A DNA stretch of 64,000 nucleotides from a virus. Its lineage: Duplodnaviria; Caudoviricetes. Position 1 is the stretch's first letter. Each line of letters opens with the position of its first letter. The notes under the pieces are model-generated. The model did no database searches. It saw only the letters and a program-made list of their open reading frames with translations, and was not told where the DNA came from. This document shows positions 12,038 through 55,881 of the stretch, piece after piece. The translations under genes were made by a program, and so were the position numbers. The DNA lies in IMG/VR virus record IMGVR_UViG_3300026519_000012, positions 751 through 64,750 of that record. One strand, given 5' to 3'.

Positions 12038-13513
12038 ATGCCAACGATAACACTACCCACCCAAAAAGGCAGCGCGCTTAATGCAACAGAGTTCGAGGAC
12101 AACCATAGGCGGACTGTTGTTCAGAAAACTGCCAACTACTCCCTACTTGAATCTGACAATCGTAATTTGATTGAGTGTAATTCAGCGTCGCCTGTCACGC
12201 TAACGCTGGGAACCGCTAGCACCATGGCCGGTGCCGACACTGGTGATTACGAGGTGTCGTTCGTAAACATCGGCTCAGGCGTCTGTACTATCGTTGGTGA
12301 CGGGGTGGACACCATCGATGGCTCAGTATCGAGCATTGCGCTGTCACAATATGAATCAGTAGTGCTAAAAGTTATTAGCGCTGGCACCGGCTACGTCTCA
12401 ATTGGAGGCGGGAGTATTCTAGGGTTAACGGCAACTGTTGACGAGCTGAACATCCTTGACGGAGTGACTTCTACTACTGCGGAGCTGAACATCCTTGACG
12501 GAGTGACTTCTACCGCTGCAGAGCTGAACATTCTTGACGGAGTGACTTCTACCGCTGCAGAGCTGAACATTCTTGACGGAGTGACTTCTACCGCTGCAGA
12601 GCTGAACATCCTTGACGGAGTGACTTCTACCGCTGCAGAGCTGAACATCCTTGACGGAGTGACTTCTACCGCTGCAGAGCTGAACATTCTTGACGGAGTG
12701 ACTGCATCAACGGCTGAGCTGAATTATACTGAAGGCGTCACTTCTTCAATTCAAAACCAGCTAGATGGAAAAGCAGGGATAGGAGTTAATAATAATTTTA
12801 CAGGGCAGCAAAGAATTACTAACACTGCGCCTACCTTGTTCTTACATGAGACAGGCGTAGCGGCAGATAGCGGGAAATATTATTTTCAGGCGGATAGCAC
12901 TGACCTGACTTTGTTTTTGATGAATGACGTAGAAACTGCATCAACTCCAGTAATGCAGTTTGCTAGAACGGGTATAAATAGTGATGCAATTGATTTTACT
13001 GCGGATAATTTTCGGATTAATGGTGAGTCGGTTGCTACACAATCACCTGCCGTGCCCGGCTATGTCAAAGGCAAAGCGGTTTATGTATCAGCTACAGGGG
13101 ACAACGGGTTAGGTATAAACATTGCTTCTAGCGCCGTTATGGATGCATGGGAGTCTTACGGCCCGACAGGTTCCGGCGCGAGTAACATCATGGCGGATCT
13201 AGACGTACTCCCGGCAGGAGCTACTTGGGTAGAGTTATCTATACGATTGCTTATCCGCCGGATTTCAGCTCCCGATACATTAGTGGCTGTTTACGCACGG
13301 CCTACAGGTAGTACGGCTAATGGGATACTCACTTCAGTGGTTCTTCATGAAGCGCAGACGGATGCTGGTGAGATAAATGTGTATTTTCTACATCGGTCTA
13401 TAAAGGTTGCGCTCGATGCGCAAAACCGTTTTGAACTTAAGTGGGATATCCCTGCATCTGGAACGGTACTATCCCAAGGTATTATAGCCATAGTCACAGG
13501 CTTCGGTGCCTAA
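12038..13513 (+). CDS. Tail fibre (phage A) with 13-aa repeat shaft
   Basis: ELNILDGVTSTAA repeats followed by SIQNQLDGK; C-terminal ~240 aa shared with 44832..46226. Confidence 0.8.
   Translation: MPTITLPTQKGSALNATEFEDNHRRTVVQKTANYSLLESDNRNLIECNSASPVTLTLGTASTMAGADTGDYEVSFVNIGSGVCTIVGDGVDTIDGSVSSIALSQYESVVLKVISAGTGYVSIGGGSILGLTATVDELNILDGVTSTTAELNILDGVTSTAAELNILDGVTSTAAELNILDGVTSTAAELNILDGVTSTAAELNILDGVTSTAAELNILDGVTASTAELNYTEGVTSSIQNQLDGKAGIGVNNNFTGQQRITNTAPTLFLHETGVAADSGKYYFQADSTDLTLFLMNDVETASTPVMQFARTGINSDAIDFTADNFRINGESVATQSPAVPGYVKGKAVYVSATGDNGLGINIASSAVMDAWESYGPTGSGASNIMADLDVLPAGATWVELSIRLLIRRISAPDTLVAVYARPTGSTANGILTSVVLHEAQTDAGEINVYFLHRSIKVALDAQNRFELKWDIPASGTVLSQGIIAIVTGFGA
12443..12715 (+). 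repeat. 39-bp tandem repeat x7 (coding)
   Basis: GAGCTGAACATYCTTGACGGAGTGACTTCTACCGCTGCA units. Confidence 0.95.
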
Positions 13514-13516
13514 ATA

Positions 13517-13711
13517 ATGAACCAAGATAAAATAGAAATAGCAAAAAACGTAGGCGACGCGGTAGTAATACCGACTGGCGTTGTGGTGTCAATAAGCTAT
13601 TGGATCACTGATATTATCAATCCATTGATAACAGCGCTGATAGGCTTAATGACTATAATTTGGCTTTTTTATAGGATCAAAGAGAGTAAGCGCATCACGA
13701 AGGCACCTTAA
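13517..13711 (+). CDS. Putative holin / small membrane protein
   Basis: 64 aa with hydrophobic segments and a basic C-terminus. Confidence 0.55.
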   Translation: MNQDKIEIAKNVGDAVVIPTGVVVSISYWITDIINPLITALIGLMTIIWLFYRIKESKRITKAP

Positions 13712-13768
13712 TGAGCGACCTTATTATTACATCGCTATCATATAAACCCGTTACAAGGTAGGAATGAA

Positions 13769-14233
13769 ATGTTGATCGATAAATTTTTCATAATAGGGCT
13801 GCCAAGGAGTAGAACCTACTGGCTAAGTCAGTTTTTTGGCTGTCTCCACGAAGGCGTTTATCACTACCCAGATTACAGGGATTTTCTTAAGTCTGACCAT
13901 ACTGGTGATAGCACTACTTGTTATTTGCAGATAAAGGATCTAATCAAGGATGAGAGAAAAGTAATCATACATAGGGATATTAAAGATGTTGGAGATTCTC
14001 TTGTTGAGCTGTTTGGGAAGTTTGATTGTAGCTTTCTGAAGGATATTGAAAAAGAATTACTAGAAGAAGATGGGCTTCATGTCCAATTTGATGACATTAG
14101 CTCACGGTTAGAGGAGATATGGGATTACTGTAGAAGCGATGAATTCCCAAAAGAAAAAGCACTAAAAATGGACGACGTGATAATGGAAAACCATTTTTTA
14201 ATTGGAGAGGTAAAGAAGCTTGTCATCTTATAA
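13769..14233 (+). CDS. Sulfotransferase-like P-loop protein
   Basis: N-terminal FFIIGLPRSRTYWL resembles the PAPS-binding loop; VIIHRD. Confidence 0.6.
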   Translation: MLIDKFFIIGLPRSRTYWLSQFFGCLHEGVYHYPDYRDFLKSDHTGDSTTCYLQIKDLIKDERKVIIHRDIKDVGDSLVELFGKFDCSFLKDIEKELLEEDGLHVQFDDISSRLEEIWDYCRSDEFPKEKALKMDDVIMENHFLIGEVKKLVIL

Positions 14234-14789
14234 GAAGCTTGATTTAAGGCTTAATGTCCAGCCGCTCAAGGAAGCCTTGGAGCGCAGGAGCGACTTATTC
14301 GGCAAGTATGATTACCGGGCGACTTCTGAAGGATCGCCACACTCGGAAATGAAAGATATCTGGGTGAGATATAAAGACGTTGCGCCACATATAAAATCGG
14401 GAGATTTCTCTAGCTTCGCTAACGAACATGACTCTATCTGGTATCAGGTATACCGGGATCTACCGGAGACAAAAGAGATTATATTTTCTGTAATGAACGC
14501 AGTAAATGGCGAACGACTTGGCGGCGTGTTAATCACAAAATTACCCCCCGGCGGTAAGATAAAGAAACATGTTGACGGTGGGTGGCACGCTGAGTATTAC
14601 GATAAATATTACGTGCCTGTTAAAAACGAAGACGGCGCTATATTTTCGTTTGAAGACGGGGTCATCGCCCCGGCGGAGGGTGACGTGTACTGGTTTGATA
14701 ATTCTAAACCTCACTGGGTAGAAAACAACTCTGATTCGGAGAGAATTGCTATGGTTATTTGTATAAGAACTGATGGAGTAGAAAGCTAA
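14220..14789 (+). CDS. Aspartyl/asparaginyl beta-hydroxylase-like 2OG-Fe(II) oxygenase
   Basis: LPPGGKIKKHVD (HxD) ... WFDNSKPHWVENNSDSERI (distal His, Arg). Confidence 0.8.
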   Translation: MSSYKKLDLRLNVQPLKEALERRSDLFGKYDYRATSEGSPHSEMKDIWVRYKDVAPHIKSGDFSSFANEHDSIWYQVYRDLPETKEIIFSVMNAVNGERLGGVLITKLPPGGKIKKHVDGGWHAEYYDKYYVPVKNEDGAIFSFEDGVIAPAEGDVYWFDNSKPHWVENNSDSERIAMVICIRTDGVES

Positions 14790-16225
14790 TGCCTTGGGGA
14801 GCAGCAGCGGTTATAGGTGGCGCGCTAGTATCCGGCTACGCATCAAATCGCGCGGCAGGAAAAGCGGCAGACGCATCACAATACGCCACTGACAGCGCTA
14901 ACAGGCTATCTGAGCGGCAGTTCGATATGGTACGTGGCGACACGGCACAAGCAAGGGCTGCAGGTGGTGAGGCGGGTGCCGAGCTATCACGATCGCTAGG
15001 CCTTAGGACGCCGATCCCTGAAGCTTTTAACAGGCAAGCGGCAATCAGAGAGGAGATCAGGAGGTTACGCGATCGAACGGGGGACGAATGGCGAAACTAT
15101 GGCTTCACTGGGCAGTACGCTATTGAAGATGAGCGCTCTAGGCAGATCAGAGAGCTTGAGAATGAAAGTGATAATTTAACGCTTTATGACGAAGCCCAGC
15201 CATTAGAAGGCGAAGTCCTGCCACAGTTTGGCGTTGAATTTAACTATAGCGGCGAAGGGCCTCAGTTTGAATACGGCGGCTCTCAGCCGGAATTTAATGA
15301 TGCTAGTCGATTAAGCCAGTTTCAGAATCAGGGTGAGAATCTGCAAAGTTTTGAAACGGATCAAGAGGTTTCGCAGTTCGGCCAAGGTGACCGGTTCGAG
15401 TATGACCTCGAAGGCGATGCTGGCTATCAGTTTGCTCGTGATGAGGCAATCAAGGCCACCGGACGAGTCTCTGCAGCACAAGGCAAGCGCGGCAGTGGTA
15501 ACCGGCTGGCAGAGGTCGCAGACCGCGTGACGGGCGTTGCATCGCAGTATGCTGACCAAGCTTTTAACCGACAGGTTAGAGCTTCCGCTGAGAACTACGG
15601 CCGAGACGTAAATGAATTCGGCCTTCAGCGCGCGGGTGATACTGAAGCGTACGGGCGAGAGCGTGGCGAATTCGCCATTGATTATGGCCGAAACATTGAT
15701 CAGTACGAGCGCGATATCGGGGCTTTCAACGTAAACACTGGAGTGGCAGATCGCAACTATGGCCGAGAGCTAACGAGGTACGAAATCGCTCGAGGAAGAG
15801 AGGGTGAAGGCTATAATCGGGCAAATCGCCTCTATGAAGTCCGAACGGCTGAGGATAACCGAGAATATCAACGCGCGGGCGATGAATATAATCGTGGTTT
15901 CACAAGGTTTGGTGTTGAGACTGATCAGAATCGGGAGCTATACGGCCGTCGCCAAGATCGATTAAATCGACTTGCAAGTATGGCGGGAGCTGGGCAAACG
16001 GCAGTCAGTCAAAGTGCAAGCGCAGGTAGCAACTATGTCAATGCTGCCAGCAACAATCTGATGGCAAATGCTCAGAATCAGGGGAATGCCGCGATGGTTA
16101 AATATCAAGGCCTAAACAATGCAGCACAAGCTGGGATCTCTAACATGTTAAGTTACAACCAGCAGCAGCAAAATAACCAGATGATGCAACAGTGGCTGAA
16201 CCAGCAGCCGGGGGCGCTAAGATGA
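14789..16225 (+). CDS. DNA ejection protein (P22 gp7-like)
   Basis: Gly/Ala-rich N-terminus MPWGAAAVIGGAL, AGYQF...GSGN and LNRLASMAGAG motifs. Confidence 0.7.
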   Translation: MPWGAAAVIGGALVSGYASNRAAGKAADASQYATDSANRLSERQFDMVRGDTAQARAAGGEAGAELSRSLGLRTPIPEAFNRQAAIREEIRRLRDRTGDEWRNYGFTGQYAIEDERSRQIRELENESDNLTLYDEAQPLEGEVLPQFGVEFNYSGEGPQFEYGGSQPEFNDASRLSQFQNQGENLQSFETDQEVSQFGQGDRFEYDLEGDAGYQFARDEAIKATGRVSAAQGKRGSGNRLAEVADRVTGVASQYADQAFNRQVRASAENYGRDVNEFGLQRAGDTEAYGRERGEFAIDYGRNIDQYERDIGAFNVNTGVADRNYGRELTRYEIARGREGEGYNRANRLYEVRTAEDNREYQRAGDEYNRGFTRFGVETDQNRELYGRRQDRLNRLASMAGAGQTAVSQSASAGSNYVNAASNNLMANAQNQGNAAMVKYQGLNNAAQAGISNMLSYNQQQQNNQMMQQWLNQQPGALR

Positions 16226-17382
16226 GCGGCTTTAAGGTATTTGATTACAATCAGGCCATCGGTGGTGCAAACCAGAGCAGCCGAAATAGACTTTCGATGA
16301 TGCAGGGTATGCAGTCGATGACTGATCGCAGGGAAGATCGGCAATATAATCGGCAGAGTCAAAACCGACTATCTGAAATCAGGGACAATCAGGAGAACCG
16401 CGCGCAGGCTCAATTCGACCAGAAACAGCAGATTGAGAATACAAAGTTTTTCTACCAAGGAATGACCGAAGTCGCCAGAGATCCATCGCGTGCCCAGTAT
16501 TGGGCGGATGAACTTAAGAAGCGTGGTATCGCTGATTTTGACATCTCAAAAGGGACCCCAGAGCAATTACAGCAAGGGGCGGCTAAGCAGGCAGATGCAC
16601 TTCGTAAATCATTGGAGGCCATTGGTGAGATTGCGCCTGAGCCACGGGAGAAATACGGGCAACCTGTTGCGGGCGTGGGGCCGAGTGGTAATCCCGAATT
16701 TCAGCGCTTTGGTGACCGAGGTAGCGCCCAGATTGTCAATGATTTCGTGCCGAGCAAGAAAGTCCCGCTGGTGAGCATAAATAAGGGCGAAGACAAGTAC
16801 GCGACGGAGAGAATGAAGTTGCAGGCTCAGGGTATTAATGACTTAGGGAAAAATGCTAGCGCGGCGTACAAGTCATCCATGGCGATGGATCGGTTTACCA
16901 AGGCATCCGAAAAAGGAACAGAAGGCGGTGCCCAGCCAGTTATAACGGCGGTAAAGAACCTTTTAACCTCTTTTGGGTATGATGACAAACAGTTGGCGGA
17001 AGTAAGAATCATGGAGCAGGCGATCAATGACGTGCTTGCAAATAAGATGGCAACATTGGGTGCCCGCGGGCTGACTGACAGTGATATGAATATACTCAAG
17101 GCGTCGCTACCTAGAGTTGCTACTGATCGCAATTCGAGGCTCGAAGTAGCTCGAATATTGAAAATCCTCAACGATTTTGAAATTGATGAGTATATTGCCG
17201 AACTTGATGAAGAGAAGAGAATTAACCCTGAGCTAGCTAAGCGGATAATGGAACCGAGGTGGCTTAGGTTTTATAAAGCAGAAAAGGCCAAGGAGGCGAA
17301 GGGCAAGGATGGAGCGCCGCCGCCCTCAACCGATCAGCCCCCCCCCTCAATTGATGACCTGGTGAATAAATATGCCAACTAG
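16222..17382 (+). CDS. DNA ejection protein (gp20 position)
   Basis: Likely start MSGFK (ATGA overlap at 16222); helical and Q-rich. Confidence 0.6.
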   Translation: MSGFKVFDYNQAIGGANQSSRNRLSMMQGMQSMTDRREDRQYNRQSQNRLSEIRDNQENRAQAQFDQKQQIENTKFFYQGMTEVARDPSRAQYWADELKKRGIADFDISKGTPEQLQQGAAKQADALRKSLEAIGEIAPEPREKYGQPVAGVGPSGNPEFQRFGDRGSAQIVNDFVPSKKVPLVSINKGEDKYATERMKLQAQGINDLGKNASAAYKSSMAMDRFTKASEKGTEGGAQPVITAVKNLLTSFGYDDKQLAEVRIMEQAINDVLANKMATLGARGLTDSDMNILKASLPRVATDRNSRLEVARILKILNDFEIDEYIAELDEEKRINPELAKRIMEPRWLRFYKAEKAKEAKGKDGAPPPSTDQPPPSIDDLVNKYAN

Positions 17383-19186
17383 AGAGCAGCTCGAATCAGC
17401 GCTAATAAATGCTGATAAGGCTGGAGACATTAACGCTGCAAAGCAACTTGCAATGGCAATCAAGCAAGGAGGTGAGATAGTCCAGCCACCTCAAGAGGTG
17501 CCACCCAAAGACCCAGCTGAAGTGTACTCAGGATTCATACAGGGACTTAGAGATCCGGTTGACGGGCTTGCTCAGCTTTTATACGAGGCATTGCCAGAAG
17601 GGGTTAGAGAGTCAGGGGACGCTTTAAATAATTGGCTTTCTGAGAAAACAGGTTTTATTGAAAAAATCCCTGAAGGTGGGTTTACTCAATTGCTAAAAGA
17701 CAAAGAAGCGAGGTACCAAGCCGGTCGAGTTAAAGAAGGAGACGAGGGCGCTGATCTGGACAGAATTGGAGGAAACTTCGTTTCAATGGCGGTTCCGGGC
17801 GCACAAGTTCGCGCAGTCAGCGCGCTGGGAAAAGTCGCTCAGGGAGCGGCTTTGGGCGCAGGATATGGCGCGGCGTTGCCAACCTATGGTGATGAGTTCT
17901 GGGTAGAAAAAGGCATGCAGGCCGCGATTGGTTCTGCTGCCGGAGGCGCCCTATCGGCCAGCGGTGTTGCCGCTGGAAAAGCCATCGATGCAGGGAAGCG
18001 CATTTTACGACCTATGACTTCTGGCGGAAGAAAGGCTGATGTCACTGACACTTACCAGACTTTAGCCGGGAGTGAAAAAGATAAAATTATTAGCGCGCTA
18101 AAATCAGCAAAAAAAGGGCAAACATCAGCGCAGGCAATCGCCAACGCTAACCGGGGAAGTAACGATGTATTTGGTGCGTCTATTGTCCGCCTAGAGAAGG
18201 ACTTATCAAAAAAATCCCCGATTACCGACAAAATGCGAAGTGTTTACAAAAAACAATCAATGGATCGAAAAAGGTCTCTTGATAAGATCGCAAAAACAGA
18301 TGGTGACCTTGCCGAAGCAATAAAACAAAGAGATAGCAAGGCCGCTCCTTACTATGATGCGGCTCGGAAGTCCAGCAATAGCATCAATGTCGAAACGCTA
18401 AGAAATAGCATCGATGGAGTTATAAGAGACAATATAAACGATACTGCGATCACTATTCCCCTTAAAAATATCCAGAGAAAGCTAAAGGATGCAACGCCAA
18501 GAGGGCTTATTTCAACGTCAAGCCATATCAAGCGCCTAATGAACAAAACAATAGACGGGAAAAATGTCTATGACAAAAAAGTGCTGACTGAGATCAAGGA
18601 AGCGCTGGATAAGAGTATTGAGAAAAGCGTTGCTGATTACGACATTGCTAGAGAGATTATCAGGAGAGAATCTGTCCCCATAAATCGAATGAAAGTCGGC
18701 CAAGAGCTTAAAAAATCGCTTATTGATGCCACCGAGCAAGAGAAGGCACGGCCGTTTGTGAACGCACTAAGGGAGGCGCCTAGAACAGTTAAGCGCGCCA
18801 CCGGGTTTACGGGCAATAACACGCTTGAAAACATTTCGAGCAGGGCCGAAATGGAGACATTTTATAAAATAAGGGATGAGCTGCTAACTGACGAGAGCAT
18901 GAGTAGACTTGCAAAAGGCGTCGACGGTGTTTTATCTGACATTTCTACGCAGTCAAAACCTCAACTGCCAAACGCTCTTGTCAGAGAGATTATGATAGCC
19001 AATCATCTGTTGAAAAGACTGGCGCACAAAGATTATGGAGCCGATTACCAGCGAATGATGCTTGACCTGCAAAAAAACCCAAAGTTGCTTGCAAAAGTGC
19101 TTCAGACAGAAAAGGACAGGAAGGTTCAGTCAGCAGTAATCAGATTGGTTGGTGAAGGCGCCGTTGTTTCAGCAGTGCCGCAATGA
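17372..19186 (+). CDS. DNA ejection protein (gp16 position)
   Basis: ALINADKAGD..AAKQLA N-terminus and Gly/Ala-rich membrane-like segments. Confidence 0.65.
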   Translation: MPTREQLESALINADKAGDINAAKQLAMAIKQGGEIVQPPQEVPPKDPAEVYSGFIQGLRDPVDGLAQLLYEALPEGVRESGDALNNWLSEKTGFIEKIPEGGFTQLLKDKEARYQAGRVKEGDEGADLDRIGGNFVSMAVPGAQVRAVSALGKVAQGAALGAGYGAALPTYGDEFWVEKGMQAAIGSAAGGALSASGVAAGKAIDAGKRILRPMTSGGRKADVTDTYQTLAGSEKDKIISALKSAKKGQTSAQAIANANRGSNDVFGASIVRLEKDLSKKSPITDKMRSVYKKQSMDRKRSLDKIAKTDGDLAEAIKQRDSKAAPYYDAARKSSNSINVETLRNSIDGVIRDNINDTAITIPLKNIQRKLKDATPRGLISTSSHIKRLMNKTIDGKNVYDKKVLTEIKEALDKSIEKSVADYDIAREIIRRESVPINRMKVGQELKKSLIDATEQEKARPFVNALREAPRTVKRATGFTGNNTLENISSRAEMETFYKIRDELLTDESMSRLAKGVDGVLSDISTQSKPQLPNALVREIMIANHLLKRLAHKDYGADYQRMMLDLQKNPKLLAKVLQTEKDRKVQSAVIRLVGEGAVVSAVPQ

Positions 19187-19364
19187 TCCGCCAAGCATTA
19201 CTTTAAAAGTAACAGTTAGCTTTTTATTTTGTTTAATATTGCCGACTCAATCGTATTTATAGCCGATCCACCCTTAATCATATCAGACGTAACGTTGTAA
19301 TGGCGTTAAAATGTTTGCCGCTCTAATTGTCTAAGCGCGGTATAAAACTGTTCTTCTATCTCGG

Positions 19365-20045
19365 TCATAATCTTTGATCCTCAAACCACTGCTGCATACC
19401 AGTATCATAATTGCTAATGCTGGTGTGGTAATTAATATAATCGCGTCCTAATAAACCATTAACCCAATTTTTAATTTTAGTCCAGCGTGATCTGCGATTG
19501 ATAACGTATGTAATATCAGGGTTGTAATATCCGGGAGGCAGGTGCTCAATCGGGTCGCCGTCATTGATAAAATGTACATTACGCTCCGGGTAATCAGCAG
19601 GTTGATAGCTGTCAACAAATGCCCCCGGTGATGCAAACGTACAGCACTGTGATTTAACACCAATATCAAACAGATCCGTATGTAAATACTGAGCTAACGC
19701 ACCGCCGCGTGAGAATCCAGTGATGTAAATATTTTGTACCTGCTCATTATAATTCATGAGCCAGTTTTCAATGCGCTCGAACATTACGTCATAGCCGCGA
19801 GTAAACCCATGCATACGGCCATCAGATGTTGCGTGAGCGTCGATATTGCGCAACCAGTCCAGATCATCATTGCTGCCTCTAAATGCGATTACAACGCCTA
19901 TGGCGCAATCCACGACTAGCACTGATTCGCCTAAGCCGTCAGCCTCTTTAAATTCAGTAACAAATTTTATGCCCCGAACCGGTGATTTGAACCCTTGAGC
20001 TAATTTCATCACCTGCCAAATTTGTTCGATTTCGTTGTTGTTCAT
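19365..20045 (-). CDS. Lipase class 3 family protein
   Basis: VIAFRGS, GxSxG nucleophile (ITGFSRGGALA), TFASP, DPIEHLPP and distal His. Confidence 0.85.
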   Translation of the reverse strand: MNNNEIEQIWQVMKLAQGFKSPVRGIKFVTEFKEADGLGESVLVVDCAIGVVIAFRGSNDDLDWLRNIDAHATSDGRMHGFTRGYDVMFERIENWLMNYNEQVQNIYITGFSRGGALAQYLHTDLFDIGVKSQCCTFASPGAFVDSYQPADYPERNVHFINDGDPIEHLPPGYYNPDITYVINRRSRWTKIKNWVNGLLGRDYINYHTSISNYDTGMQQWFEDQRL

Positions 20046-20080
20046 TTGCCCCCCCCCTTTTTTTTTGCTTAAAAGTCGAC

Positions 20081-20140
20081 GCAGTAATCTACGCCAATAT
20101 GAGTGTTACACGCCGCATGTCCTGCTACTTACTGTTATGC
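20081..20140 (+). other. attI-like recombination site (phage B copy)
   Basis: Ungapped 46/58 match to 52789-52846, ending at a G|TTRRRY-type core (G at 20134). Confidence 0.55.
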
Positions 20141-20356
20141 ATCGTGCGAATCTGGTATTAATCGCATTTCCCAGCAAATATTCCTAATACTAAACACTAA
20201 TTGTTATATTTTAACAGCCTGCCTTTGCGTAACAGTTTTGTGCTTTTTCTTAGCGCTCTCCACAACGCTTTGTCCTCGTTTTTTGTTAAGTGCCGCTCGC
20301 GCCGCGCGCTATACGTAACGTTATCGCTGCCATGGCCTATTGTTTTACGTGTAATG

Positions 20357-20647
20357 TTACACACCAAACGAGGCCTTCACTAAAAACCTACTTGTATCTA
20401 CAGTTACACCCTCCGGTATTTCATCCAGCCGTAGTTCGCCGGTGGGGAAGATTCCCTTCCTAATCCGTGCGAGGATCCCCTCAAACAGTTGCGAGTTAGT
20501 ATATCCCCCATATTTCTCATGTGGTCGAAATGCATTTATATCACAGTGCGATGACTTGAGCTTTGGTACGTTCACACACCCATAATCCACGTCATCGTTC
20601 ACTGCGCAGGCCGTTATTTTTTTAGCCCGGAACTTAATAGTAACCAT
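20357..20647 (-). CDS. Hypothetical protein (possible cassette gene)
   Basis: GAGGAG RBS; the stop TAA lies in a GTTA at 20356, as in the phage A cassettes. Confidence 0.55.
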   Translation of the reverse strand: MVTIKFRAKKITACAVNDDVDYGCVNVPKLKSSHCDINAFRPHEKYGGYTNSQLFEGILARIRKGIFPTGELRLDEIPEGVTVDTSRFLVKASFGV

Positions 20648-20741
20648 ACTCTTTACTCCTCATTCACAAACGTGTTAGTAGTGATACGGTCAATATCATT
20701 ATTAAGGTGCGCGATTGTCATCACGCCACCGCTTAGAAACA

Positions 20742-20921
20742 ACGTTATGTGTCAAATAAACAATACACTCAATAGCGTCTCAAAATCGCCGCCGCACAAA
20801 ATCTTCTTTTTACCTATATACGGCCCAGAAACTTCGTAATCGTCGATTGATATTCGTTTTATTTTATAGTCGCTAATACAGATATTTACCGATGGCTCAA
20901 TGTCACAATTAAATCGCCATA
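20742..20921 (-). pseudogene. Truncated copy of cassette 2 gene (53991..54332)
   Basis: 180 bp matching 53981-54160 with 2 mismatches; the 5' half of the gene is missing. Confidence 0.85.
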
Positions 20922-21070
20922 CTCCGTTTCCACAAGTATTTTTTTTTTAATGCTATGACTGTCCCATTATGGTTATTCGACCGTACTTATCCGGAAAGAT
21001 AACTGTAAGTGTACGCCTATCTTCTACGAATTCCGCGTACATACAATGTAATAACTATGTGCCATAGTAG

Positions 21071-23509
21071 CTAACAAGAAACGTAAAACTTTTCTCGCCA
21101 ACTATTTTCATGGCGTATAATATCTTCATAACTAATATTTTTCGTGTAAGGCATTAATCTTTTGCCCCACCCTAATCCTACTTGTGCGTCTGTAGGCACA
21201 ACAAATTTACGGCCTTTTATTTCGCATTCATTCTCTAAAAGTTTTTGTATTTGTGGAATGTTATGCAGAGATTCTATTTTGATCTGTCCGATTAAACTAT
21301 CATGCACTTGGTTTAATACCTGAAAGCCTAACTTTTCTTCCCATCGTTCATTCCATATAGTTAATAAACCTTTATTAATATTGCCAGCCGTACCGCCCTG
21401 CCCAATATAAGCCGCGAACTCCCTTTCTATTTTGCTATCCGATAGAGAGCCTAAGAATTTTCTAGTTCTGCCAAATGCACAAGCAAATTTATTTTGGTTT
21501 TGTTGCGCCTGTAAAATATCTGCTTTTAAAGTTATCTGTAACCACGGGTACAGTTTGAAATACTCAATGGAAAACTGTTTGCATAAGGCAATTAATTTTG
21601 CTTCACTCCACATATGAGCGTCAACAAAACCTAATGCTGTCGCTGCGCCAATCACTGATTTTTTACCCATTGTTATATATAGCGTGCGAGGGTGCATTAA
21701 ATAATTAAGCCCGTAAACAATACGTTTTGTTAATTGTCTAATACCATACACTGGATGACCTACCCAATCTTCGCCATTTATATGGCCTTGATAAACTTCT
21801 TCATAAGACCGTTTGAAAAAATGCGCCGCATGATAGCAATGTGTATCTTTGTCACCGATCATTAACGCCATGTAAGTTGGGTCTTCGGAATTAAAGGCTG
21901 TAAAATATGCATCTGACTGCGCGTAGTCGATATCAAATAATAAATAACCCGGATCTGGCACCAACATTACGCGGGAATCTTTGGGTAGATTTTGCGCGTT
22001 TGTGCCTAGCCAAAAAGTCCCGGCTTTGCTTGCTAAGCGCCCGGTTTCTGTTCCGGCAGCCGATATTTGATATACAAATCGACCTTCTAAACACAACTTT
22101 TTTCTATCTCCATACTTGCTAATATTATTAGCAGGCTTTTTCACTTGCCATATAGTCTCTATAAGTTTTTCTGCTACAGGGTGTTGTGTTTGAAGAAGTT
22201 TTAAATATTGTTCATTCGTTGTTCGAGAAGGCGCGCGAGGTATTGGGGACAAACGTAAAATGTCGTACAGTAAAACTGCTACTTGTTTAGGGGAATTAGG
22301 ATTGAAATCATGCCCGCACATTATAGCTAAATCTTTTCTTGCTGTTCTGGACTCTTTATCCCAAATAGCTACCAGCTTATTTTGCGCTGTGGTATCTAAA
22401 TTTATTCCCCGTAAAGTCATTAACAACATGCTGCCCGATTGCAAGCCAAGTTCTGTATTATAATTATCCAGCGCCCACTTTAATTTTTCTTGTGTTATAA
22501 TCCGTACTAACTCTATAGCTGCAAGTGTCATATAGTATGTGTCAAGGGCGTTGTATCGCCAGTAATCTTCATACCCTTCAGTCGTTGAGGGTAATTTTGT
22601 TTTGTCTTTGTCATCCTTCGCGTCTTCAACACCCTCATCTTTCCAATAGCGGTAATGGTCAACAAATAAAGAAACAATAAAGTCTAAGCGTTTAGGTGCC
22701 TCTGTCCATATGGAATGAAATAAATGCATTGTATCTACAACGTAGTTACGCACAGGTATCTGGTACTTGACCATATGTGAATTATCATACAAGCCGTTCT
22801 GCCAAAGTTTAGGCGTGGGATTGTTGTTTATCCGTTTAATGCATGACCAAACTTGTTTTTCTTGTTCTGCACACCAAAAAGCACTTTGTCGTTCTGCTGT
22901 GTATATGAAAGGGACTACGTAAGTAGTTAATTGCTTACCTTTGAGGACAGTATAAGCTATGGAACTTATATAGGTGCTAGACGTCTCAATGTCCATACCT
23001 AACATATCCGCATTTGCGGCTTCTTGCTCTAAGTGCTCAACATGGCATAGTTCTCTGCAAACAGAATAAGTGAATTGTGGTTCTTGTTTTTGCTTTCTAT
23101 CAAACCATCTCTTAGCTTTCACCCAATCCATTAAAGCTACCCAACCTGCCCATGTCATGTATTTAACTTTTTTCAGGTCATCTACTATAATGCAAGGAAT
23201 ACCTCGGTACATAATGACAGAACCTCTACAGCAAGGTAAAGAGGTGTACTTTTTTGTTATAAACCCTAGCGTCGCTTTATCATTTACAATAATTATTTTT
23301 GGTTTATGACTGTCTATAAAATCAATGAATTCTTGCTCTTTATTAGGATCGTAAGTGTATTGTGTTTTACCTTTTTTTACTAACCAGCCTACCTTAGCGG
23401 TAGTAACAGTAACTTGGAATATAGAGAATCCCGCTTTTACACTAGCTGCGCGTGCCATTTTAAGATATGGCGGGGGGCTGCTTGCGGGAGCTATAAATAA
23501 TGCAGTCAT
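21071..23509 (-). CDS. polA: Family A DNA polymerase with 3'-5' exonuclease and N-terminal extra (UDG-like?) domain
   Basis: Exo I DIETS; TETGRLAS; motif A DYAQSD; motif B RQLTKRIVYGLNY; motif C QVHDSL. Start probably MTALF. Confidence 0.92.
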   Translation of the reverse strand: MTALFIAPASSPPPYLKMARAASVKAGFSIFQVTVTTAKVGWLVKKGKTQYTYDPNKEQEFIDFIDSHKPKIIIVNDKATLGFITKKYTSLPCCRGSVIMYRGIPCIIVDDLKKVKYMTWAGWVALMDWVKAKRWFDRKQKQEPQFTYSVCRELCHVEHLEQEAANADMLGMDIETSSTYISSIAYTVLKGKQLTTYVVPFIYTAERQSAFWCAEQEKQVWSCIKRINNNPTPKLWQNGLYDNSHMVKYQIPVRNYVVDTMHLFHSIWTEAPKRLDFIVSLFVDHYRYWKDEGVEDAKDDKDKTKLPSTTEGYEDYWRYNALDTYYMTLAAIELVRIITQEKLKWALDNYNTELGLQSGSMLLMTLRGINLDTTAQNKLVAIWDKESRTARKDLAIMCGHDFNPNSPKQVAVLLYDILRLSPIPRAPSRTTNEQYLKLLQTQHPVAEKLIETIWQVKKPANNISKYGDRKKLCLEGRFVYQISAAGTETGRLASKAGTFWLGTNAQNLPKDSRVMLVPDPGYLLFDIDYAQSDAYFTAFNSEDPTYMALMIGDKDTHCYHAAHFFKRSYEEVYQGHINGEDWVGHPVYGIRQLTKRIVYGLNYLMHPRTLYITMGKKSVIGAATALGFVDAHMWSEAKLIALCKQFSIEYFKLYPWLQITLKADILQAQQNQNKFACAFGRTRKFLGSLSDSKIEREFAAYIGQGGTAGNINKGLLTIWNERWEEKLGFQVLNQVHDSLIGQIKIESLHNIPQIQKLLENECEIKGRKFVVPTDAQVGLGWGKRLMPYTKNISYEDIIRHENSWREKFYVSC

Positions 23510-23524
23510 ACTTTTCCACCTCAA

Positions 23525-44835: not shown

Positions 44836-46226
44836 CTAAACGCGTACAAATACTTCGTTATACGGACGCCGCAACCTCTGCATTTGTTGGGCGCGTGGGC
44901 GAATTGTCAGTAAATTTGACTAACAAAAGCCTAGTTGTTCATGACGGCATAAACGCCGGAGGGCAAGAACAAGCAAGGGTTGATTTTGTTAATGTCGATG
45001 GTGTGCCAGCGTTGACGCAATTAAGTGCTGGTGTGGGTTCGATTGCAGGATTAACTGTGGGTGCTAATCGGCTTCTATATACTGAATCTTCTGATTCCTA
45101 CACATCAACGAGCTTGACCTTGCTAGGACGTAATCTTTTAGCAGGAAATAATACAGCCGCTATGCGTGCAACGTTGGAAACTCCTGGGCTGGCTGTCTCG
45201 AATACGTTTCTTAATCAGCATAATGAATTTCGTGGTCGTATTGAAATGAACAATCACGGTGTTACTCCTGCAAGTTTTGTTCATCATGATGACAACGCGG
45301 ATGTTGATAAAAAGCGTTGGGGCATTACAACTTCAGGAACGGCGAACGGAGACTTACATTTTCAAGCGCGCTCGGATGATGATATTACCCGTGTTGATTA
45401 TATGGTATGTACTAGAGGTACGGGTGTGTCTGTATTTAGGGTTAATTTGCTTGCGGGGGAAGTACAGGCAAATGGTAGCAATATTGTTACAGAGGCTAGA
45501 AATAATAATTTTGCAGGGCAGCAAAGAATTACTAACACTGCGCCTACCTTGTTTTTACATGAGACAGGCGTAGCGGCAGATAGTGGGAAATATTATTTTC
45601 AGGTGGATAGCACTAACCTGACTTTGTTTTTGATGAATGACGCAGAAAATGCATCAACTCCAGTAATGCAGTTTGCTAGAACGGGTATAAATAGTGATGC
45701 AATTGATTTTACTGCGGATAATTTTCGGATTAATGGTGAGTCGGTTGCTACACAATCACCTGCCGTGCCCGGCTATGTCAAAGGCAAAGCGGTTTATGTA
45801 TCAGCTACAGGGGACAACGGGTTAGGTATAAACATTGCTTCTAGCGCCGTTATGGATGCATGGGAGTCTTACGGCCCGACAGGTTCCGGCGCGAGTAACA
45901 TCATGGCGGATCTAGACGTACTCCCGGCAGGAGCTACTTGGGTAGAGTTATCTATACGATTGCTTATCCGCCGGATTTCAGCTCCCGATACATTAGTGGC
46001 TGTTTACGCACGGCCTACAGGTAGTACGGCTAATGGGATACTCACTTCAGTGGTTCTTCATGAAGCGCAGACGGATGCTGGTGAGATAAATGTGTATTTT
46101 CTACATCGGTCTATAAAGGTTGCGCTCGATGCGCAAAACCGTTTTGAACTTAAGTGGGATATCCCTGCATCTGGAACGGTACTATCCCAAGGTATTATAG
46201 CCATAGTCACAGGCTTCGGTGCCTAA
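44832..46226 (+). CDS. Tail fibre (phage B), Mtd-like N-terminal anchor
   Basis: VQILR...FVGRVGEL...LVVHDG..AGG N-terminal motif; C-terminus shared with 12038..13513. Confidence 0.8.
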   Translation: MTKRVQILRYTDAATSAFVGRVGELSVNLTNKSLVVHDGINAGGQEQARVDFVNVDGVPALTQLSAGVGSIAGLTVGANRLLYTESSDSYTSTSLTLLGRNLLAGNNTAAMRATLETPGLAVSNTFLNQHNEFRGRIEMNNHGVTPASFVHHDDNADVDKKRWGITTSGTANGDLHFQARSDDDITRVDYMVCTRGTGVSVFRVNLLAGEVQANGSNIVTEARNNNFAGQQRITNTAPTLFLHETGVAADSGKYYFQVDSTNLTLFLMNDAENASTPVMQFARTGINSDAIDFTADNFRINGESVATQSPAVPGYVKGKAVYVSATGDNGLGINIASSAVMDAWESYGPTGSGASNIMADLDVLPAGATWVELSIRLLIRRISAPDTLVAVYARPTGSTANGILTSVVLHEAQTDAGEINVYFLHRSIKVALDAQNRFELKWDIPASGTVLSQGIIAIVTGFGA

Positions 46227-46229
46227 ATA

Positions 46230-46424
46230 ATGAACCAAGATAAAATAGAAATAGCAAAAAACGTAGGCGACGCGGTAGTAATACCGACTGGCGTTGTGGT
46301 GTCAATAAGCTATTGGATCACTGATATTATCAATCCATTGATAACAGCGCTGATAGGCTTAATGACTATAATTTGGCTTTTTTATAGGATCAAAGAGAGT
46401 AAGCGCATCACGAAGGCACCTTAA
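46230..46424 (+). CDS. Putative holin (copy 2)
   Basis: Identical to 13517..13711. Confidence 0.55.
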   Translation: MNQDKIEIAKNVGDAVVIPTGVVVSISYWITDIINPLITALIGLMTIIWLFYRIKESKRITKAP

Positions 46425-46481
46425 TGAGCGACCTTATTATTACATCGCTATCATATAAACCCGTTACAAGGTAGGAATGAA

Positions 46482-46946
46482 ATGTTGATCGATAAATTTT
46501 TCATAATAGGGCTGCCAAGGAGTAGAACCTACTGGCTAAGTCAGTTTTTTGGCTGTCTCCACGAAGGCGTTTATCACTACCCAGATTACAGGGATTTTCT
46601 TAAGTCTGACCATACTGGTGATAGCACTACTTGTTATTTGCAGATAAAGGATCTAATCAAGGATGAGAGAAAAGTAATCATACATAGGGATATTAAAGAT
46701 GTTGGAGATTCTCTTGTTGAGCTGTTTGGGAAGTTTGATTGTAGCTTTCTGAAGGATATTGAAAAAGAATTACTAGAAGAAGATGGGCTTCATGTCCAAT
46801 TTGATGACATTAGCTCACGGTTAGAGGAGATATGGGATTACTGTAGAAGCGATGAATTCCCAAAAGAAAAAGCACTAAAAATGGACGACGTGATAATGGA
46901 AAACCATTTTTTAATTGGAGAGGTAAAGAAGCTTGTCATCTTATAA
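46482..46946 (+). CDS. Sulfotransferase-like protein (copy 2)
   Basis: Identical to 13769..14233. Confidence 0.6.
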   Translation: MLIDKFFIIGLPRSRTYWLSQFFGCLHEGVYHYPDYRDFLKSDHTGDSTTCYLQIKDLIKDERKVIIHRDIKDVGDSLVELFGKFDCSFLKDIEKELLEEDGLHVQFDDISSRLEEIWDYCRSDEFPKEKALKMDDVIMENHFLIGEVKKLVIL

Positions 46947-47502
46947 GAAGCTTGATTTAAGGCTTAATGTCCAGCCGCTCAAGGAAGCCTTGGAGCGCAG
47001 GAGCGACTTATTCGGCAAGTATGATTACCGGGCGACTTCTGAAGGATCGCCACACTCGGAAATGAAAGATATCTGGGTGAGATATAAAGACGTTGCGCCA
47101 CATATAAAATCGGGAGATTTCTCTAGCTTCGCTAACGAACATGACTCTATCTGGTATCAGGTATACCGGGATCTACCGGAGACAAAAGAGATTATATTTT
47201 CTGTAATGAACGCAGTAAATGGCGAACGACTTGGCGGCGTGTTAATCACAAAATTACCCCCCGGCGGTAAGATAAAGAAACATGTTGACGGTGGGTGGCA
47301 CGCTGAGTATTACGATAAATATTACGTGCCTGTTAAAAACGAAGACGGCGCTATATTTTCGTTTGAAGACGGGGTCATCGCCCCGGCGGAGGGTGACGTG
47401 TACTGGTTTGATAATTCTAAACCTCACTGGGTAGAAAACAACTCTGATTCGGAGAGAATTGCTATGGTTATTTGTATAAGAACTGATGGAGTAGAAAGCT
47501 AA
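46933..47502 (+). CDS. Asp/Asn beta-hydroxylase-like oxygenase (copy 2)
   Basis: Identical to 14220..14789. Confidence 0.8.
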   Translation: MSSYKKLDLRLNVQPLKEALERRSDLFGKYDYRATSEGSPHSEMKDIWVRYKDVAPHIKSGDFSSFANEHDSIWYQVYRDLPETKEIIFSVMNAVNGERLGGVLITKLPPGGKIKKHVDGGWHAEYYDKYYVPVKNEDGAIFSFEDGVIAPAEGDVYWFDNSKPHWVENNSDSERIAMVICIRTDGVES

Positions 47503-51899: not shown

Positions 51900-52077
51900 T
51901 CCGCCAAGCATTACTTTAAAAGTAACAGTTAGCTTTTTATTTTGTTTAATATTGCCGACTCAATCGTATTTATAGCCGATCCACCCTTAATCATATCAGA
52001 CGTAACGTTGTAATGGCGTTAAAATGTTTGCCGCTCTAATTGTCTAAGCGCGGTATAAAACTGTTCTTCTATCTCGG

Positions 52078-52758: not shown

Positions 52759-52788
52759 TTATACAGTCCTCTCTGCTGATAAACCGGC

Positions 52789-52848
52789 GCAGCAATCTGC
52801 GCTAATGTGCGTGTTATACGCCATATATCCATGTACTTACTGTTATAT
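52789..52848 (+). other. attI-like recombination site (phage A copy)
   Basis: Non-hairpin site ending in G|TTATAT (G at 52842) at the head of the array; conserved with 20081-20138. Confidence 0.6.
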
Positions 52849-52854: not shown

Positions 52855-53856
52855 TCACGCTATCTGCTTAATTTTAAGCTCGCTGCCGCCTAGAATCGCA
52901 TTGCCGCAAGTAATCAAGCCATCCTCCTCGTCTTGTGAGGGAATAAACACAAGAGTATCGAATCCCGCAGCCGTGCAGCTATCTTCTGGCTTTTTGTAGG
53001 GTCGGTACGTTTGATACCCGTCTACCGTTTGAATACCGTTCTCGCGGCAAGCAGAATTATTATGGATCGGAGTTATCTTCACCATCCATTTATCAACGTC
53101 AAAAAGATTGGCAAGCTTTTCACCGTCCACTTCGTTACCGGAGGCGTAAGCTATATTTAAGCAATATTTGCGCCCTATAGGGCTCTGTAGGCTTTCTAGC
53201 TGATCCGCAATATACCCAAGCGTATAACTGCTTCCGCCAAACATTGCGGTTCTTTGTTTCTCTGAGCTAGTGTTGACGCTAATCTGTAATCCAGCCTGAC
53301 CTTTGAATAGATCATTCTTTATGGATGCCCATTCGTGGATTCTCTCGAACGTGTGTTTGTATTCTGGGCACATCGTGGTAAGAACTGGGTGGATAACTTC
53401 AATCCTTACTCCTGTTTCATCTTGGATTTGGCGTTTATTATTTGCCAGCCACTCGGAAAACTTAAACACATCGATATTAAAAATAGGCTCGCCCATTCTT
53501 GCAAAGTGAATGTTCAGGCGGTCTGTGTATTTTACGTTTTCGTAGGCCTTTAGTCCCGTATAAAACTGAGACTTTAAATCGTCAAAACTAACGTTACCTG
53601 AAAACTTAATGTTTGGTACGTCGCAAAAGGTGCATTTCATTATGCAACCATATTGAGTAGATAGGGTGATAACCCACTTCTCTTGCAGCGGCATAATCTC
53701 GCCATTCTCAACACCGTTAAGCTCGCGGGTGTAACCTAAAAAGTCGGCTTTTATGTTTTTGCGTTTCCCGTAATCACCAATGGAAAGGGTTTCTAATTTT
53801 CCTTTGGCGTAGTCATCAACAATCAAATACCCCGTGGGTAAGAAAATTTTATTCAT
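52855..53856 (-). CDS. Radical SAM protein, RlmN/Cfr-like (cassette 1)
   Basis: STQYGCIMKCTFC (CxxxCxxC), RMGEP, LQISVN and C-terminal TCG. Confidence 0.8.
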   Translation of the reverse strand: MNKIFLPTGYLIVDDYAKGKLETLSIGDYGKRKNIKADFLGYTRELNGVENGEIMPLQEKWVITLSTQYGCIMKCTFCDVPNIKFSGNVSFDDLKSQFYTGLKAYENVKYTDRLNIHFARMGEPIFNIDVFKFSEWLANNKRQIQDETGVRIEVIHPVLTTMCPEYKHTFERIHEWASIKNDLFKGQAGLQISVNTSSEKQRTAMFGGSSYTLGYIADQLESLQSPIGRKYCLNIAYASGNEVDGEKLANLFDVDKWMVKITPIHNNSACRENGIQTVDGYQTYRPYKKPEDSCTAAGFDTLVFIPSQDEEDGLITCGNAILGGSELKIKQIA

Positions 53857-53883
53857 GGTAGATTAGCCTTCCTCACAAATGGA

Positions 53884-53989
53884 ATATAACAAGGCAAATC
53901 CACTCCGACAAAATAAAGCGGTGCTTGCCCTGCGTTCTTTTTTAGCTCCTCACGCCGCTTTATTTCGCGGGTGATTTGCGACGTTATGT
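53884..53989 (+). other. attC site 1
   Basis: ATATAAC-aagGCAAATCCAC...GGTGATTTGC-gac-GTTATGT. Confidence 0.85.
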
Positions 53990-53990
53990 G

Positions 53991-54332
53991 TCAAATAAAC
54001 AATACACTCAACAGCGTCTCAAAATCGCCGCCGCACAAAATCTTCTTTTTACCTATATACGGCCCAGAAACTTCGTAATCGTCGATTGATATTCGTTTTA
54101 TTTTATAGTCGCCAATACAGATATTTACCGATGGCTCAATGTCACAATTAAATCGCCATATTTTTTGAGTTTCGTCAAAAGAAATATCAATATTATCGGC
54201 AACAAAGCCACGGTCAAATAACGCGCTGTAAACCTCTATTGGCTCAATCTCGGCATCTTTAGTGCCCTCAGCGTCCATCAAGTGTTTTTGGTCTCTTACC
54301 TCTAATTCTAGTTTTGCGAGTAATCCACACAT
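53991..54332 (-). CDS. Hypothetical protein (cassette 2)
   Basis: ATG lies inside the R'' of attC2. Confidence 0.6.
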   Translation of the reverse strand: MCGLLAKLELEVRDQKHLMDAEGTKDAEIEPIEVYSALFDRGFVADNIDISFDETQKIWRFNCDIEPSVNICIGDYKIKRISIDDYEVSGPYIGKKKILCGGDFETLLSVLFI

Positions 54333-54428
54333 AACAATTAGCTCCAGCGGACACAGTACCGCGCCGCGTTTTTAGTTAAATTTAAGCTCCTGTGCGGCGG
54401 TACTGCGCCGCTGAGCATGGCGTTAGAT
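54329..54428 (+). other. attC site 2
   Basis: ACATAAC-aatta-GCTCCAGCGGAC...CCGCTGAGC-atggc-GTTAGAT, with an extra C in L''. Confidence 0.9.
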
Positions 54429-54767
54429 AGCTCTATCATTGTATTCATCAACTGCATCAAGCGGACTCCTTAGCTCCATCTCCTCAACATCACAAACAAT
54501 GAGCTTATAAACCAGTTCATCAGGAGCAAAAACCAGTCTTTTTGTTATCCCTGTTTTAGGGTTTTTGCAGAATGCAATTTCAATTTGCCTCTCCATCACA
54601 GATGTTATTCGATCCATGTCTATTGACTCTACCCCTAATACCATTCCTTCTGGATTGAGCGGGTCATTAGAAATAGTCAGCCCACCGTCATCATTAACAT
54701 TTTCAGTATCCATGCCGCCTTCAGCAATACTGGCGGTTAATGCATTAGCTAAGCTTTTATCAATCAT
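54423..54767 (-). CDS. Hypothetical protein (cassette 3)
   Basis: GGAG RBS; the stop TAA is the TTA of the crossover. Confidence 0.6.
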   Translation of the reverse strand: MIDKSLANALTASIAEGGMDTENVNDDGGLTISNDPLNPEGMVLGVESIDMDRITSVMERQIEIAFCKNPKTGITKRLVFAPDELVYKLIVCDVEEMELRSPLDAVDEYNDRAI

Positions 54768-54793
54768 AAGGCAACTCCGTAATTAAGTTCGCA

Positions 54794-55141: not shown

Positions 55142-55151
55142 TCCGTCGCAC

Positions 55152-55249: not shown

Positions 55250-55250
55250 C

Positions 55251-55853: not shown

Positions 55854-55881
55854 TTTCTAATCCTCCAGTGTAATTCCCGCA

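Follow-up and report, generated by a model that had tools for sequence, protein, structure and literature searches.

A truncated cassette fragment behind an attI-like core in a vent phage, and the attC array of a co-occurring phage

Clusters of attC sites without an integron integrase (CALINs) have been described in phages. According to the available part of Qi et al. 2023 (PMC9892861), 17 such clusters are known, including in virulent phages, and 5 of the 6 tested phage attC recombine with attI1 under IntI1 at G/TTRRRY (the slash marks the crossover point throughout). The same part of that report places GTTRRRY motifs at the borders of the phage clusters (Qi et al. 2023, PMC9892861). In bacterial genomes, the integron integrase is also described, in the accessible portion of a preprint, to insert cassettes outside att sites (bioRxiv 10.1101/2022.09.11.507474). 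Reports of integron parts in phages are recent and concern isolated clusters. Mosaicism of the lambdoid and T4 types, for its part, proceeds by relaxed homologous recombination by Rad52-like recombinases and involves promoter or stem-loop cassettes.

The window analysed here, 64,000 nucleotides long, covers positions 751 to 64750 of one virus record of 64,750 bp, which IMG/VR classes as linear and 100% complete; all coordinates are given in window numbering. Two phage gene sets are present in this one record, with terminase, portal and capsid genes at 3-12 kb and a second, different set at 35-45 kb. A block of DNA polymerase, exonuclease, ligase and helicase genes occupies 21-32 kb on the minus strand. 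An ssb/RecE/RecT block lies at 57-60 kb, also on the minus strand (RecE/RecT-type recombinases encoded at 57610-60175), and is followed by O-like, RusA and Q-like genes on the plus strand. The G+C content is 0.36-0.45 for 20-45 kb versus 0.43-0.50 for the remainder of the record. No INPHARED phage matched 19000-24000 or 52000-57000 by megablast, protein searches returned distant relatives only (<60% identity), and the relatives of the DNA polymerase in IMG/VR share only 35-37% identity with it. In IMG/VR, we found no relative of the 113-aa ORF or of the lipase described below, no copy of the 56-aa module and no exact match to the attC pattern. Rfam models gave nothing on 19000-22000, and a promoter/terminator scan did not exceed chance level.

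An open reading frame reads across the two ends of the record, as if these were directly contiguous. This arrangement was rejected, as a 2,884-bp metagenome contig that is a mosaic relative (L050) has 1,969 bp between the same end points, and the frame running through them is a fusion by chance. The conclusion that, beyond the region at the end of the record, the late genes from its start come next is not affected.

The two phage gene sets share a long block, called S. Its first copy and its last gene are as follows:

12788..20138, plus strand: block S, copy 1 (tail-fibre end, ejection proteins, lipase; self-BLAST, PHROGs and Pfam matches)
19365..20045, minus strand: class-3 lipase/esterase of 226 aa, last gene of S (Pfam Lipase_3, E 9.2e-10; phrog_21992)

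In self-comparison, 12788-20138 and 45501-52846 are 99.35% identical over 7351 columns, without any mismatch across 12937-19946, and the right edge of copy 1 is the left border of the studied locus. Block S looks like a host-recognition and DNA-delivery module common to both phages. With 7.35 kb in common at 99.35%, these phages are not unrelated, as a first-pass annotation of this DNA had them.

The only public run holding the locus is a hydrothermal vent metagenome kept as contigs (X1), which is perhaps the sample behind the assembly of the record and hence not fully independent of it. Unitig depth in X1 is 41.9 to the left of S copy 1, but only 10.3 and 12.2 on the right side. Letters belonging to the other copy account for 17.5/55.3 at the left edge of S and 48/55.7 at the right edge, the minor letters checked at these edges being those of the other S copy. 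Further minor letters inside S, at depth 8-17, match neither copy of the record, which suggests that a choice made by the assembler contributed to the perfect match between the S copies. The record almost certainly joins two phages wrongly across S, and its split into a phage A and a phage B at ~32.4 kb is probably wrong as well, the depths pairing the flanks the other way. From the depths and the edge letters, the abundant phage is a RecE/RecT phage carrying the first capsid set and comprises left flank 1, S and right flank 2. The rare one, a polymerase phage carrying the second capsid set, comprises left flank 2, S and right flank 1. This pairing agrees with the G+C content and places the studied locus in the polymerase phage, together with the structural genes at 32.7-45.5 kb. 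The case shows how assembly of a metagenome can merge two phages that have a 7-kb module in common into a single record labelled "100% complete".

In the RecE/RecT phage, S is followed by an array of genes and repeated sites:

52759..52846, plus strand: attI-like region at the start of the array, ending TACTTACTG/TTAT (alignment)
52855..53856, minus strand: 333-aa gene in first cassette position (phrog_24834, E 2.1e-107)
53881..53991, plus strand: attC 1, R' = GACG/TTATGTGT, crossover G at 53983 (model R1, 31.0 bits, E 1.5e-6)
53991..54332, minus strand: 113-aa ORF of cassette 2, source-type copy of the island described below (ORF list)
54326..54430, plus strand: attC 2, the own attC of cassette 2, crossover G at 54422 (model R1, 80.7 bits)
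54791-54882, plus strand: attC 3 (covariance models)
55149-55251, plus strand: attC 4 (covariance models)
55538-55642, plus strand: attC 5 (covariance models)
55879-55951, plus strand: attC 6 (covariance models)
56356-56471, plus strand: attC 7 (covariance models)
56856-56948, plus strand: attC 8 (covariance models)

The 104-nt repeat at 54330-54432 and 55542-55644 is an imperfect palindrome, attC 2 and attC 5 being 86.5% identical over 104 nt. Bacterial loci with a 20-mer of this repeat number 38; they come from marine and sediment genomes of great diversity, and many lie at the end of a contig. In the bacterial copies the ends are conserved and the centre differs in both sequence and length, which is the architecture of integron attC, and in these loci attC form arrays of the same orientation at cassette-like spacing. 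Among the five genomes tested, intI (TIGR02249) was above the curated cut-off in three and split in a fourth. The closest bacterial attC (88-90% identity to attC 2) lies ~360 nt from the intI gene in genome G005. The five attC-bearing bacterial genomes examined for prophages (G001-G005) contain none like either phage, the matches being limited to ssb and attC.

A covariance model (R1) built from 28 bacterial sites and 2 phage copies was run unfiltered over the whole window. It gave seven matches at E < 0.01, all on the plus strand, intergenic and within 53881-56948, five of which are not part of the model; among the 19 matches listed at E <= 10 over the 64 kb, the next best scored 15.7 bits. 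A further model, R2, adds an eighth phage attC site; in control DNA (45.6 kb, from other phages and the first 2.5 kb of the record) its scores did not exceed 13.8 bits. The alignment of 36 sites has 16 pairs with 89.5% of the cells paired, against 27-45% after a shift of the 3' partners by 1-3 columns. Covariation in its R and L helices is strong, with 73 double-sided changes versus 22.9 +/- 3.6 after shuffling, none of 500 shuffles being as high. In the sites of the array, the R'' box (which ends in AAC) pairs with the R' box (GTT...), as do the L'' and L' boxes. The L helix leaves two top-strand columns unpaired (C and A), and the aligned sites are ~62-126 nt long. R' begins with GTTAT in 16 of the 36 sites, as at all three phage junctions.

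The sequences, the junction positions and the nature of the sites of the RecE/RecT phage as attC are what the analysis shows. Judged from sequence, the array can be called a true cluster of eight attC sites without an integrase, as in the definition of a CALIN, and its sites are predicted to recombine under IntI at G/TT. Site attC 1 was scored by a model not containing it, and its bottom strand folds with a z of -3.2. The unit of the 113-aa gene runs from 53984 to attC 2, with G/TT at its 5' end and its own attC at its 3' end; the ORF itself has one partial homologue (P0001, 96%). The 333-aa gene has a homologue (76% at the amino acid level) in an unrelated phage context without attC; "radical-SAM-like", a possible reading of its cysteine motif without a Pfam match, serves as a label only. 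Small minus-strand ORFs lie between the sites from attC 3 to attC 8.

The attI-like core lies to the left of the array, at its R'' side, with the crossover at its G/TT and then the first cassette, the top strand of the array being the plus strand. The attI-like regions of the two phages are 69% identical, and their last 13 nt, TACTTACTGTTAT (that is, TACTTACTG/TTAT), are the same in both. All likeness between the two loci ends at this core, with divergence 4 nt after the G of G/TT. A bacterial locus (L045) has a split intI, CATCTACTTATTG/TTAGAC at ~150 nt from the intI start, and directly thereafter the first attC of an array. The phage core in the RecE/RecT copy, CATGTACTTACTG/TTATAT, agrees with this attI crossover region at 14 of 16 positions in register, in a single post hoc comparison. 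When the attI-like regions were compared with the intI loci by BLAST, no match was significant, and only the 13-mer was then compared in register. With at most one mismatch, a 12-mer of the core had 5 other matches in 277 kb of fetched loci versus ~1.2 expected by our own estimate. The attI-like label of the first-pass annotation is supported by the position at the head of the array and, in that one post hoc comparison, by the core, and not by the neighbourhood, as the region adjoins the lipase gene and no intI.

The corresponding locus of the polymerase phage is composed as follows:

20046..20134, plus strand: attI-like region, upstream of the lipase start (65/94 columns identical to the copy of the RecE/RecT phage)
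20135..20164, plus strand: first 30 nt past G/TT, 5' end (in attC-top sense) of a cassette-like unit (29/30 versus L050rc 2259-2288)
20165..20203, plus strand: 39-nt stretch without counterpart in L050, between the direct repeats TAATCG and TAATTG (alignment)
20197..20367, minus strand: 56-aa basic ORF, of which 20204-20356 is a shared module (two L050 DNA matches)
20357..20647, minus strand: 96-aa orphan ORF, its stop being the TTA of GTTA at 20356-20359 (ORF list)
20648..20743, plus strand: 96-nt spacer, expected place of the attC of the preceding cassette (no attC recognisable)
20742..20921, minus strand: 180-bp island, start-less 3' fragment of the 113-aa cassette gene (self-BLAST, alignment, junction unitigs)
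20922..21070, no strand: phage-specific stretch of 149 nt between the fragment and the DNA polymerase stop (alignment)
21071-23524, minus strand: DNA polymerase gene (DNA_pol_A match)

The island matches 53981-54160 at 178 of 180 bases (E 1.7e-86), with mismatches at 20773 and 20874. Of ORF 53991-54332(-) it retains the 56 last codons with their stop, plus 10 nt beyond the stop. No ATG, GTG or TTG precedes the homologous part within the frame 20752-20946(-) of the polymerase phage, so the island is a gene fragment that has lost its 5' half and its start. The match begins at AC-G/TT, 2 nt before the crossover G of attC 1. Upstream of GTT, where more extended homology was looked for, only the two bases AC are common and the homology stops. 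The C before the crossover G is near-invariant in the 36 sites, and any attC-type partner is therefore expected to share ACG. Of the cassette of the 113-aa gene, the polymerase phage keeps only the first 178 nt, and the join at 20921/20922 is clearly an illegitimate mid-gene joint. The first-pass annotation had reported this match with its two mismatches, its start at the crossover of cassette 2, the loss of the 5' half of the gene and of its attC, and later erosion; all of this was reproduced, the site at the crossover being found by the model and the erosion taking the form of a mid-gene deletion at the right end of the island.

Misassembly of the island had been named as one possible refutation. 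In X1, a 509-nt unitig of depth 10.3 spans 20263-20771 with 0 differences and crosses the left junction, and a 7797-nt unitig of depth 12.2 begins at 20892 and crosses the right one. Each enters the island by 30 nt, the maximum for k=31. Among the X1 contigs listed for 20772-20891, only the type of the RecE/RecT phage occurs, which weighs neither for nor against the island. At the k-mer level, the island is not misassembled, in a run that is possibly not fully independent of the record.

Sequences behind the core of the polymerase phage recur behind attC elsewhere. Contig L050 has three attC matches (35.6, 27.9 and 13.6 bits), and its homologue of 20135-20164 is directly behind the 27.9-bit attC, with an offset of 2 nt. 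Module 20204-20356 has two counterparts in L050, at 92.3% and 94.4% identity, one of them directly behind the weak attC with an offset of 1 nt, and an X1 contig has the same attC end ahead of 20207. That the junctions in L050 match at 1-2 nt and not exactly counts against an integron reading. The homologues of the 56-aa ORF in L050 are 78 aa and 57 aa long. The 96-aa ORF, whose stop in GTTA had been correctly noticed at first pass, matched only itself in a search of 5.8 billion proteins.

Neither an attC nor a half-site could be detected anywhere in 19950-21150 with covariance models and HMMs of the 5' and 3' halves of attC, a relaxed search of the kind that the first-pass annotation had proposed. 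The best match in this region, on the minus strand, scored 13.7 bits with all L-box pairs broken, control-DNA noise being 13.8 bits. In the spacer 20648-20743, whose size and position would suit the attC of the preceding unit, R2 gave 3.0 bits (E 0.67 in 171 nt), the fold had a z of -1.4 to -1.6, and there was no half-site. A canonical attI x attC insertion requires a site at 20648-20743, and its absence is a point against an integron reading. Because the neighbouring 180 bp are 98.9% identical to their counterpart, there was also little time for an attC to decay, which counts in the same direction. The stretch 20227-20326, first taken for a degenerate attC, was rejected: it has no plus-strand model match, and DNA folds of 20220-20335 (z +1.3 and +1.7) are worse than those of shuffles. 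Lying inside the 56-aa ORF with its two L050 homologues, it is coding DNA, specifying the ~50 residues at the C-terminus of a basic protein of small size. With 0 attC and 0 half-sites in 20134-20921, the locus is below the at least two attC of a CALIN. Of the "decayed cassette array" originally proposed, the truncated cassette fragment stands, "array" being a generous word for a locus with no recognisable attC.

In cassettes, the ORF usually lies on the top strand of attC, though this is not an absolute rule. The longest ORF is on the top strand in 19 of 23 bacterial intervals, and antisense to it in all 7 phage intervals. All phage attC sites are located between the stop and the ribosome-binding site plus start codon of minus-strand genes, and in 3 of the 8 the stop of the next minus-strand gene is the TTA of G/TTA. 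A search of the six frames of the whole 64,750-bp record with TIGR02249 and PF00589 gave no match at E <= 1, so IntI would have to be that of the host. The antisense ORFs (7/7), the lack of a tyrosine recombinase and the post hoc nature of the attI match are further observations that we counted against an integron reading.

The reading that we prefer, with moderate confidence, is that different cassettes were inserted in the manner of an integron at the shared attI-like core, ahead of a shared older cassette, and that a deletion followed in the polymerase phage. On this reading, the locus is the zone of accessory genes that separates the DNA polymerase gene from the lipase/tail module in a podophage of ~32.7 kb, and is assembled from pieces of integron-type cassettes. 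The RecE/RecT phage of the same community has the same lipase module, an attI-like site behind it, and eight attC with one or two small genes between neighbours. An integron integrase of the host, neither phage encoding one, would insert cassettes at attI. The first unit behind the core is the 333-aa gene with its attC in the RecE/RecT phage and the 56-aa and 96-aa ORFs in the polymerase phage, both phages resuming with the same next cassette from its 5' boundary. A mid-gene deletion in the polymerase phage would later have removed the start codon and the attC of the shared cassette. With no attC left there, the locus would be frozen and decaying. The enzyme, the order of the events and a former working site of the 20135-20743 unit are what we infer.

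The joints predicted for attI x attC recombination agree exactly with those observed. In the RecE/RecT phage these are CTG/TTATATT... at the core and ...GACG/TTATGTG at the shared cassette, and in the polymerase phage CTG/TTATGCA... and ...CAACG/TTATGTG, respectively. A common core, differing first units and then the same cassette from its boundary form the footprint expected of cassette insertion, and the junctions between the two phages carry the signatures that integron-type site-specific recombination would leave. The first-pass annotation had inferred that cassettes move between phages in this way; the junctions are as that would predict, but the cassette could also have come with the 7.35-kb block, together with which it may have been inherited. 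Overall, what that annotation observed is confirmed in part and what it concluded is partly supported.

Ordinary mosaicism could produce the same arrangement, a possibility that we take seriously without finding it probable. An ~8.1 kb block (12788 to 20921) would have entered an ancestor of the polymerase phage from a relative of the RecE/RecT phage, and the segment from the lipase 5' end to 20743 would later have been replaced from a third relative. Both loci adjoin the 7.35-kb shared block, and the identity is stepwise (core 100%, 5' end of the lipase gene 89%, region upstream of it 69%, island 98.9%), which points to several events of different age. The joints would, tentatively, stem from homologous recombination on the left and from an illegitimate mid-gene event on the right, those at gene ends being the joints of surviving recombinants. 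In line with this are the RecE/RecT-type genes at 57610-60175, the lack of attC in the polymerase phage, the clearly illegitimate right joint at 20921 and the distance of all junctions from a stop codon, at most ~10 nt. No junction is more than ~10 nt away from the end of a gene, a position at which mosaic joints of phages are often kept, so that site and gene end are confounded, and GTTA could conceivably, with a similar degree of doubt, represent stop codons of the other strand (TAA then C). However, this explanation leaves to chance the sharp borders at 0-2 nt from the crossover of a verified attC and of an over-conserved attI-like core, and does not explain why sequences of the polymerase phage are found directly behind attC ends in L050 and in the X1 contig. 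It is quite improbable that the attC hairpins are mere portable homology patches, or RNA or regulatory hairpins, exchanged by RecE/RecT-type recombination with no integrase involved. The 86.5% identity of attC 2 and attC 5 over 104 nt, the position of the sites between a stop and a ribosome-binding site plus start, an mRNA that would carry the folding bottom strand and the lack of an integrase would all suit such patches, whereas an exchange inside a hairpin leaves an attC at the joint, and the polymerase phage has none left of 20744 and no counterpart of the 110-nt body of attC 1.

Least credible of all is that the assembly of a mixed metagenome created the island or the DNA around it. A mis-join of the record across S is almost certain (depths of 41.9 versus 10.3-12.2; edge letters of 17.5/55.3 versus 48/55.7), and contigs of the RecE/RecT type alone are listed for 20772-20891. 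Yet unitigs specific to the polymerase phage extend past both junctions to the limit of k-1 = 30 nt, with the depth of the polymerase side, and the mis-join concerns the pairing of the S flanks, not the locus itself. 

A wider reading, less probable than not, is that co-occurring vent phages carry an integrase-less integron platform, made of an attI-like site and an attC array, and swap cassettes with one another via a host IntI borrowed during infection. The genes would then be antisense so that phage promoters read them, swaps would also take place with bacterial integrons, and the locus of the polymerase phage would be a snapshot of such an exchange whose sites were later lost.

If the preferred reading, integron-type insertion at the shared core, is true, the mosaicism of phages would have one source in the integron integrases of their hosts, and phages would be both carriers and users of the cassette pool. 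The locus of the polymerase phage is itself a decayed remnant; the eight-site array of the RecE/RecT phage, a kind of cluster already published for phages, is the more remarkable object.

Compared with lambdoid and T4-type mosaicism, the two loci likewise present short high-identity islands in unrelated DNA, gene-end joints and RecT-type genes, but those systems are without attC-type R/L boxes and without the G/TT crossover. With the sedentary chromosomal integrons of marine Gammaproteobacteria, the phage sites share the attC class (R''-L''/L'-R' ends, two bulged bases, variable centre). The closest attC, at 88-90%, is near the intI of G005, and the attI crossover of L045 resembles the phage core in one post hoc comparison. 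Unlike these integrons, the phage array has no intI, its genes are reversed, and it is located within an early operon of the phage, between ssb and the lipase gene. Cassette insertion outside att sites, as far as the available part of the preprint describes it (bioRxiv 10.1101/2022.09.11.507474), would explain the joint of a G/TT cassette to non-attC DNA at 20744. In the accessible literature on phage CALINs, we found no description of an attI-like array head, of uniformly antisense genes or of a boundary-exact cassette shared by co-occurring phages. As in the phage CALINs of the available part of PMC9892861, there are several attC and no integrase in the phage genome. In contrast to them, the RecE/RecT phage carries eight sites in one array, with all genes antisense and an attI-like core at the head without an integrase, and a second, co-occurring phage, itself without attC, carries the same core together with a truncated cassette.

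The record, which comprises window positions 1-64000 plus 750 nt upstream and is rated 100% complete, is almost certainly made of two phages of about 32 kb each, fused across a shared block of 7.35 kb (12788-20138, with a second copy at 45501-52846). Unitig depths across this block were 42 vs. 10-12 in run X1, a public hydrothermal vent metagenome. These depths and the letters at the edges of the block show that each left flank has been combined with the wrong right flank. In the same run, minor letters absent from both copies in the record were found at a depth of 8-17 at these positions of the block:

13612-13648
19455-19512
19569-19581
19872-19884
19938-19952

That the two copies are perfectly identical may in part reflect a choice made during assembly.

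The phage encoding RecE/RecT carries a cluster of integron cassette sites (attC), flanked by the lipase module and ssb, and a first-cassette gene:

52855-53856, gene of 333 aa, first cassette (phrog_24834, E 2.1e-107)
53881-56948, + strand for all sites, cluster of eight integron-type attC sites

No integrase was found in the record carrying this cluster. In all seven intervals between the sites, the genes are antisense to the attC top strand, and at three sites the TTA of the crossover motif G|TTA doubles as the stop codon of the next gene. A homologue of the first-cassette gene (76% identity) was also identified on an unrelated viral contig of 37 kb (L001, 6001-6996), where it overlaps the neighbouring genes, and no attC was detected near it.

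At the other end of the window, the interval separating the late promoter from a Q-like gene contains one half of an attC site (R''-L'', 63874-63892, minus strand). The mosaic relative L050, a metagenome contig of 2,884 bp, possesses a complete attC where the record has only this half, and 1,969 bp with small genes and attC sites separate the points corresponding to the end and the start of the record. This half-site and the content of L050 suggest that the late operon begins with another zone of cassettes, which may have caused the contig break at the record ends.

Several other features were observed in the shared block and to its left. Immediately upstream of the lipase start, the first copy displays nine C followed by nine T (20050-20067), possibly a slippage-prone tract or a hot spot of sequencing errors; its counterpart in the other copy is unrelated sequence. 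Just left of the block, the tail-fibre gene contains tandem direct repeats with a period of 78 nt (12443-12745; 80-90% alike) and, farther left, a perfect direct repeat of 68 nt has its second copy 75 nt on (2093-2235). Finally, a 189-aa ORF of the shared virion/ejection block (14220-14789) gives a hit (E 3.7e-10) to the Pfam family of Asp/Asn beta-hydroxylases, which is unusual among phage structural genes.
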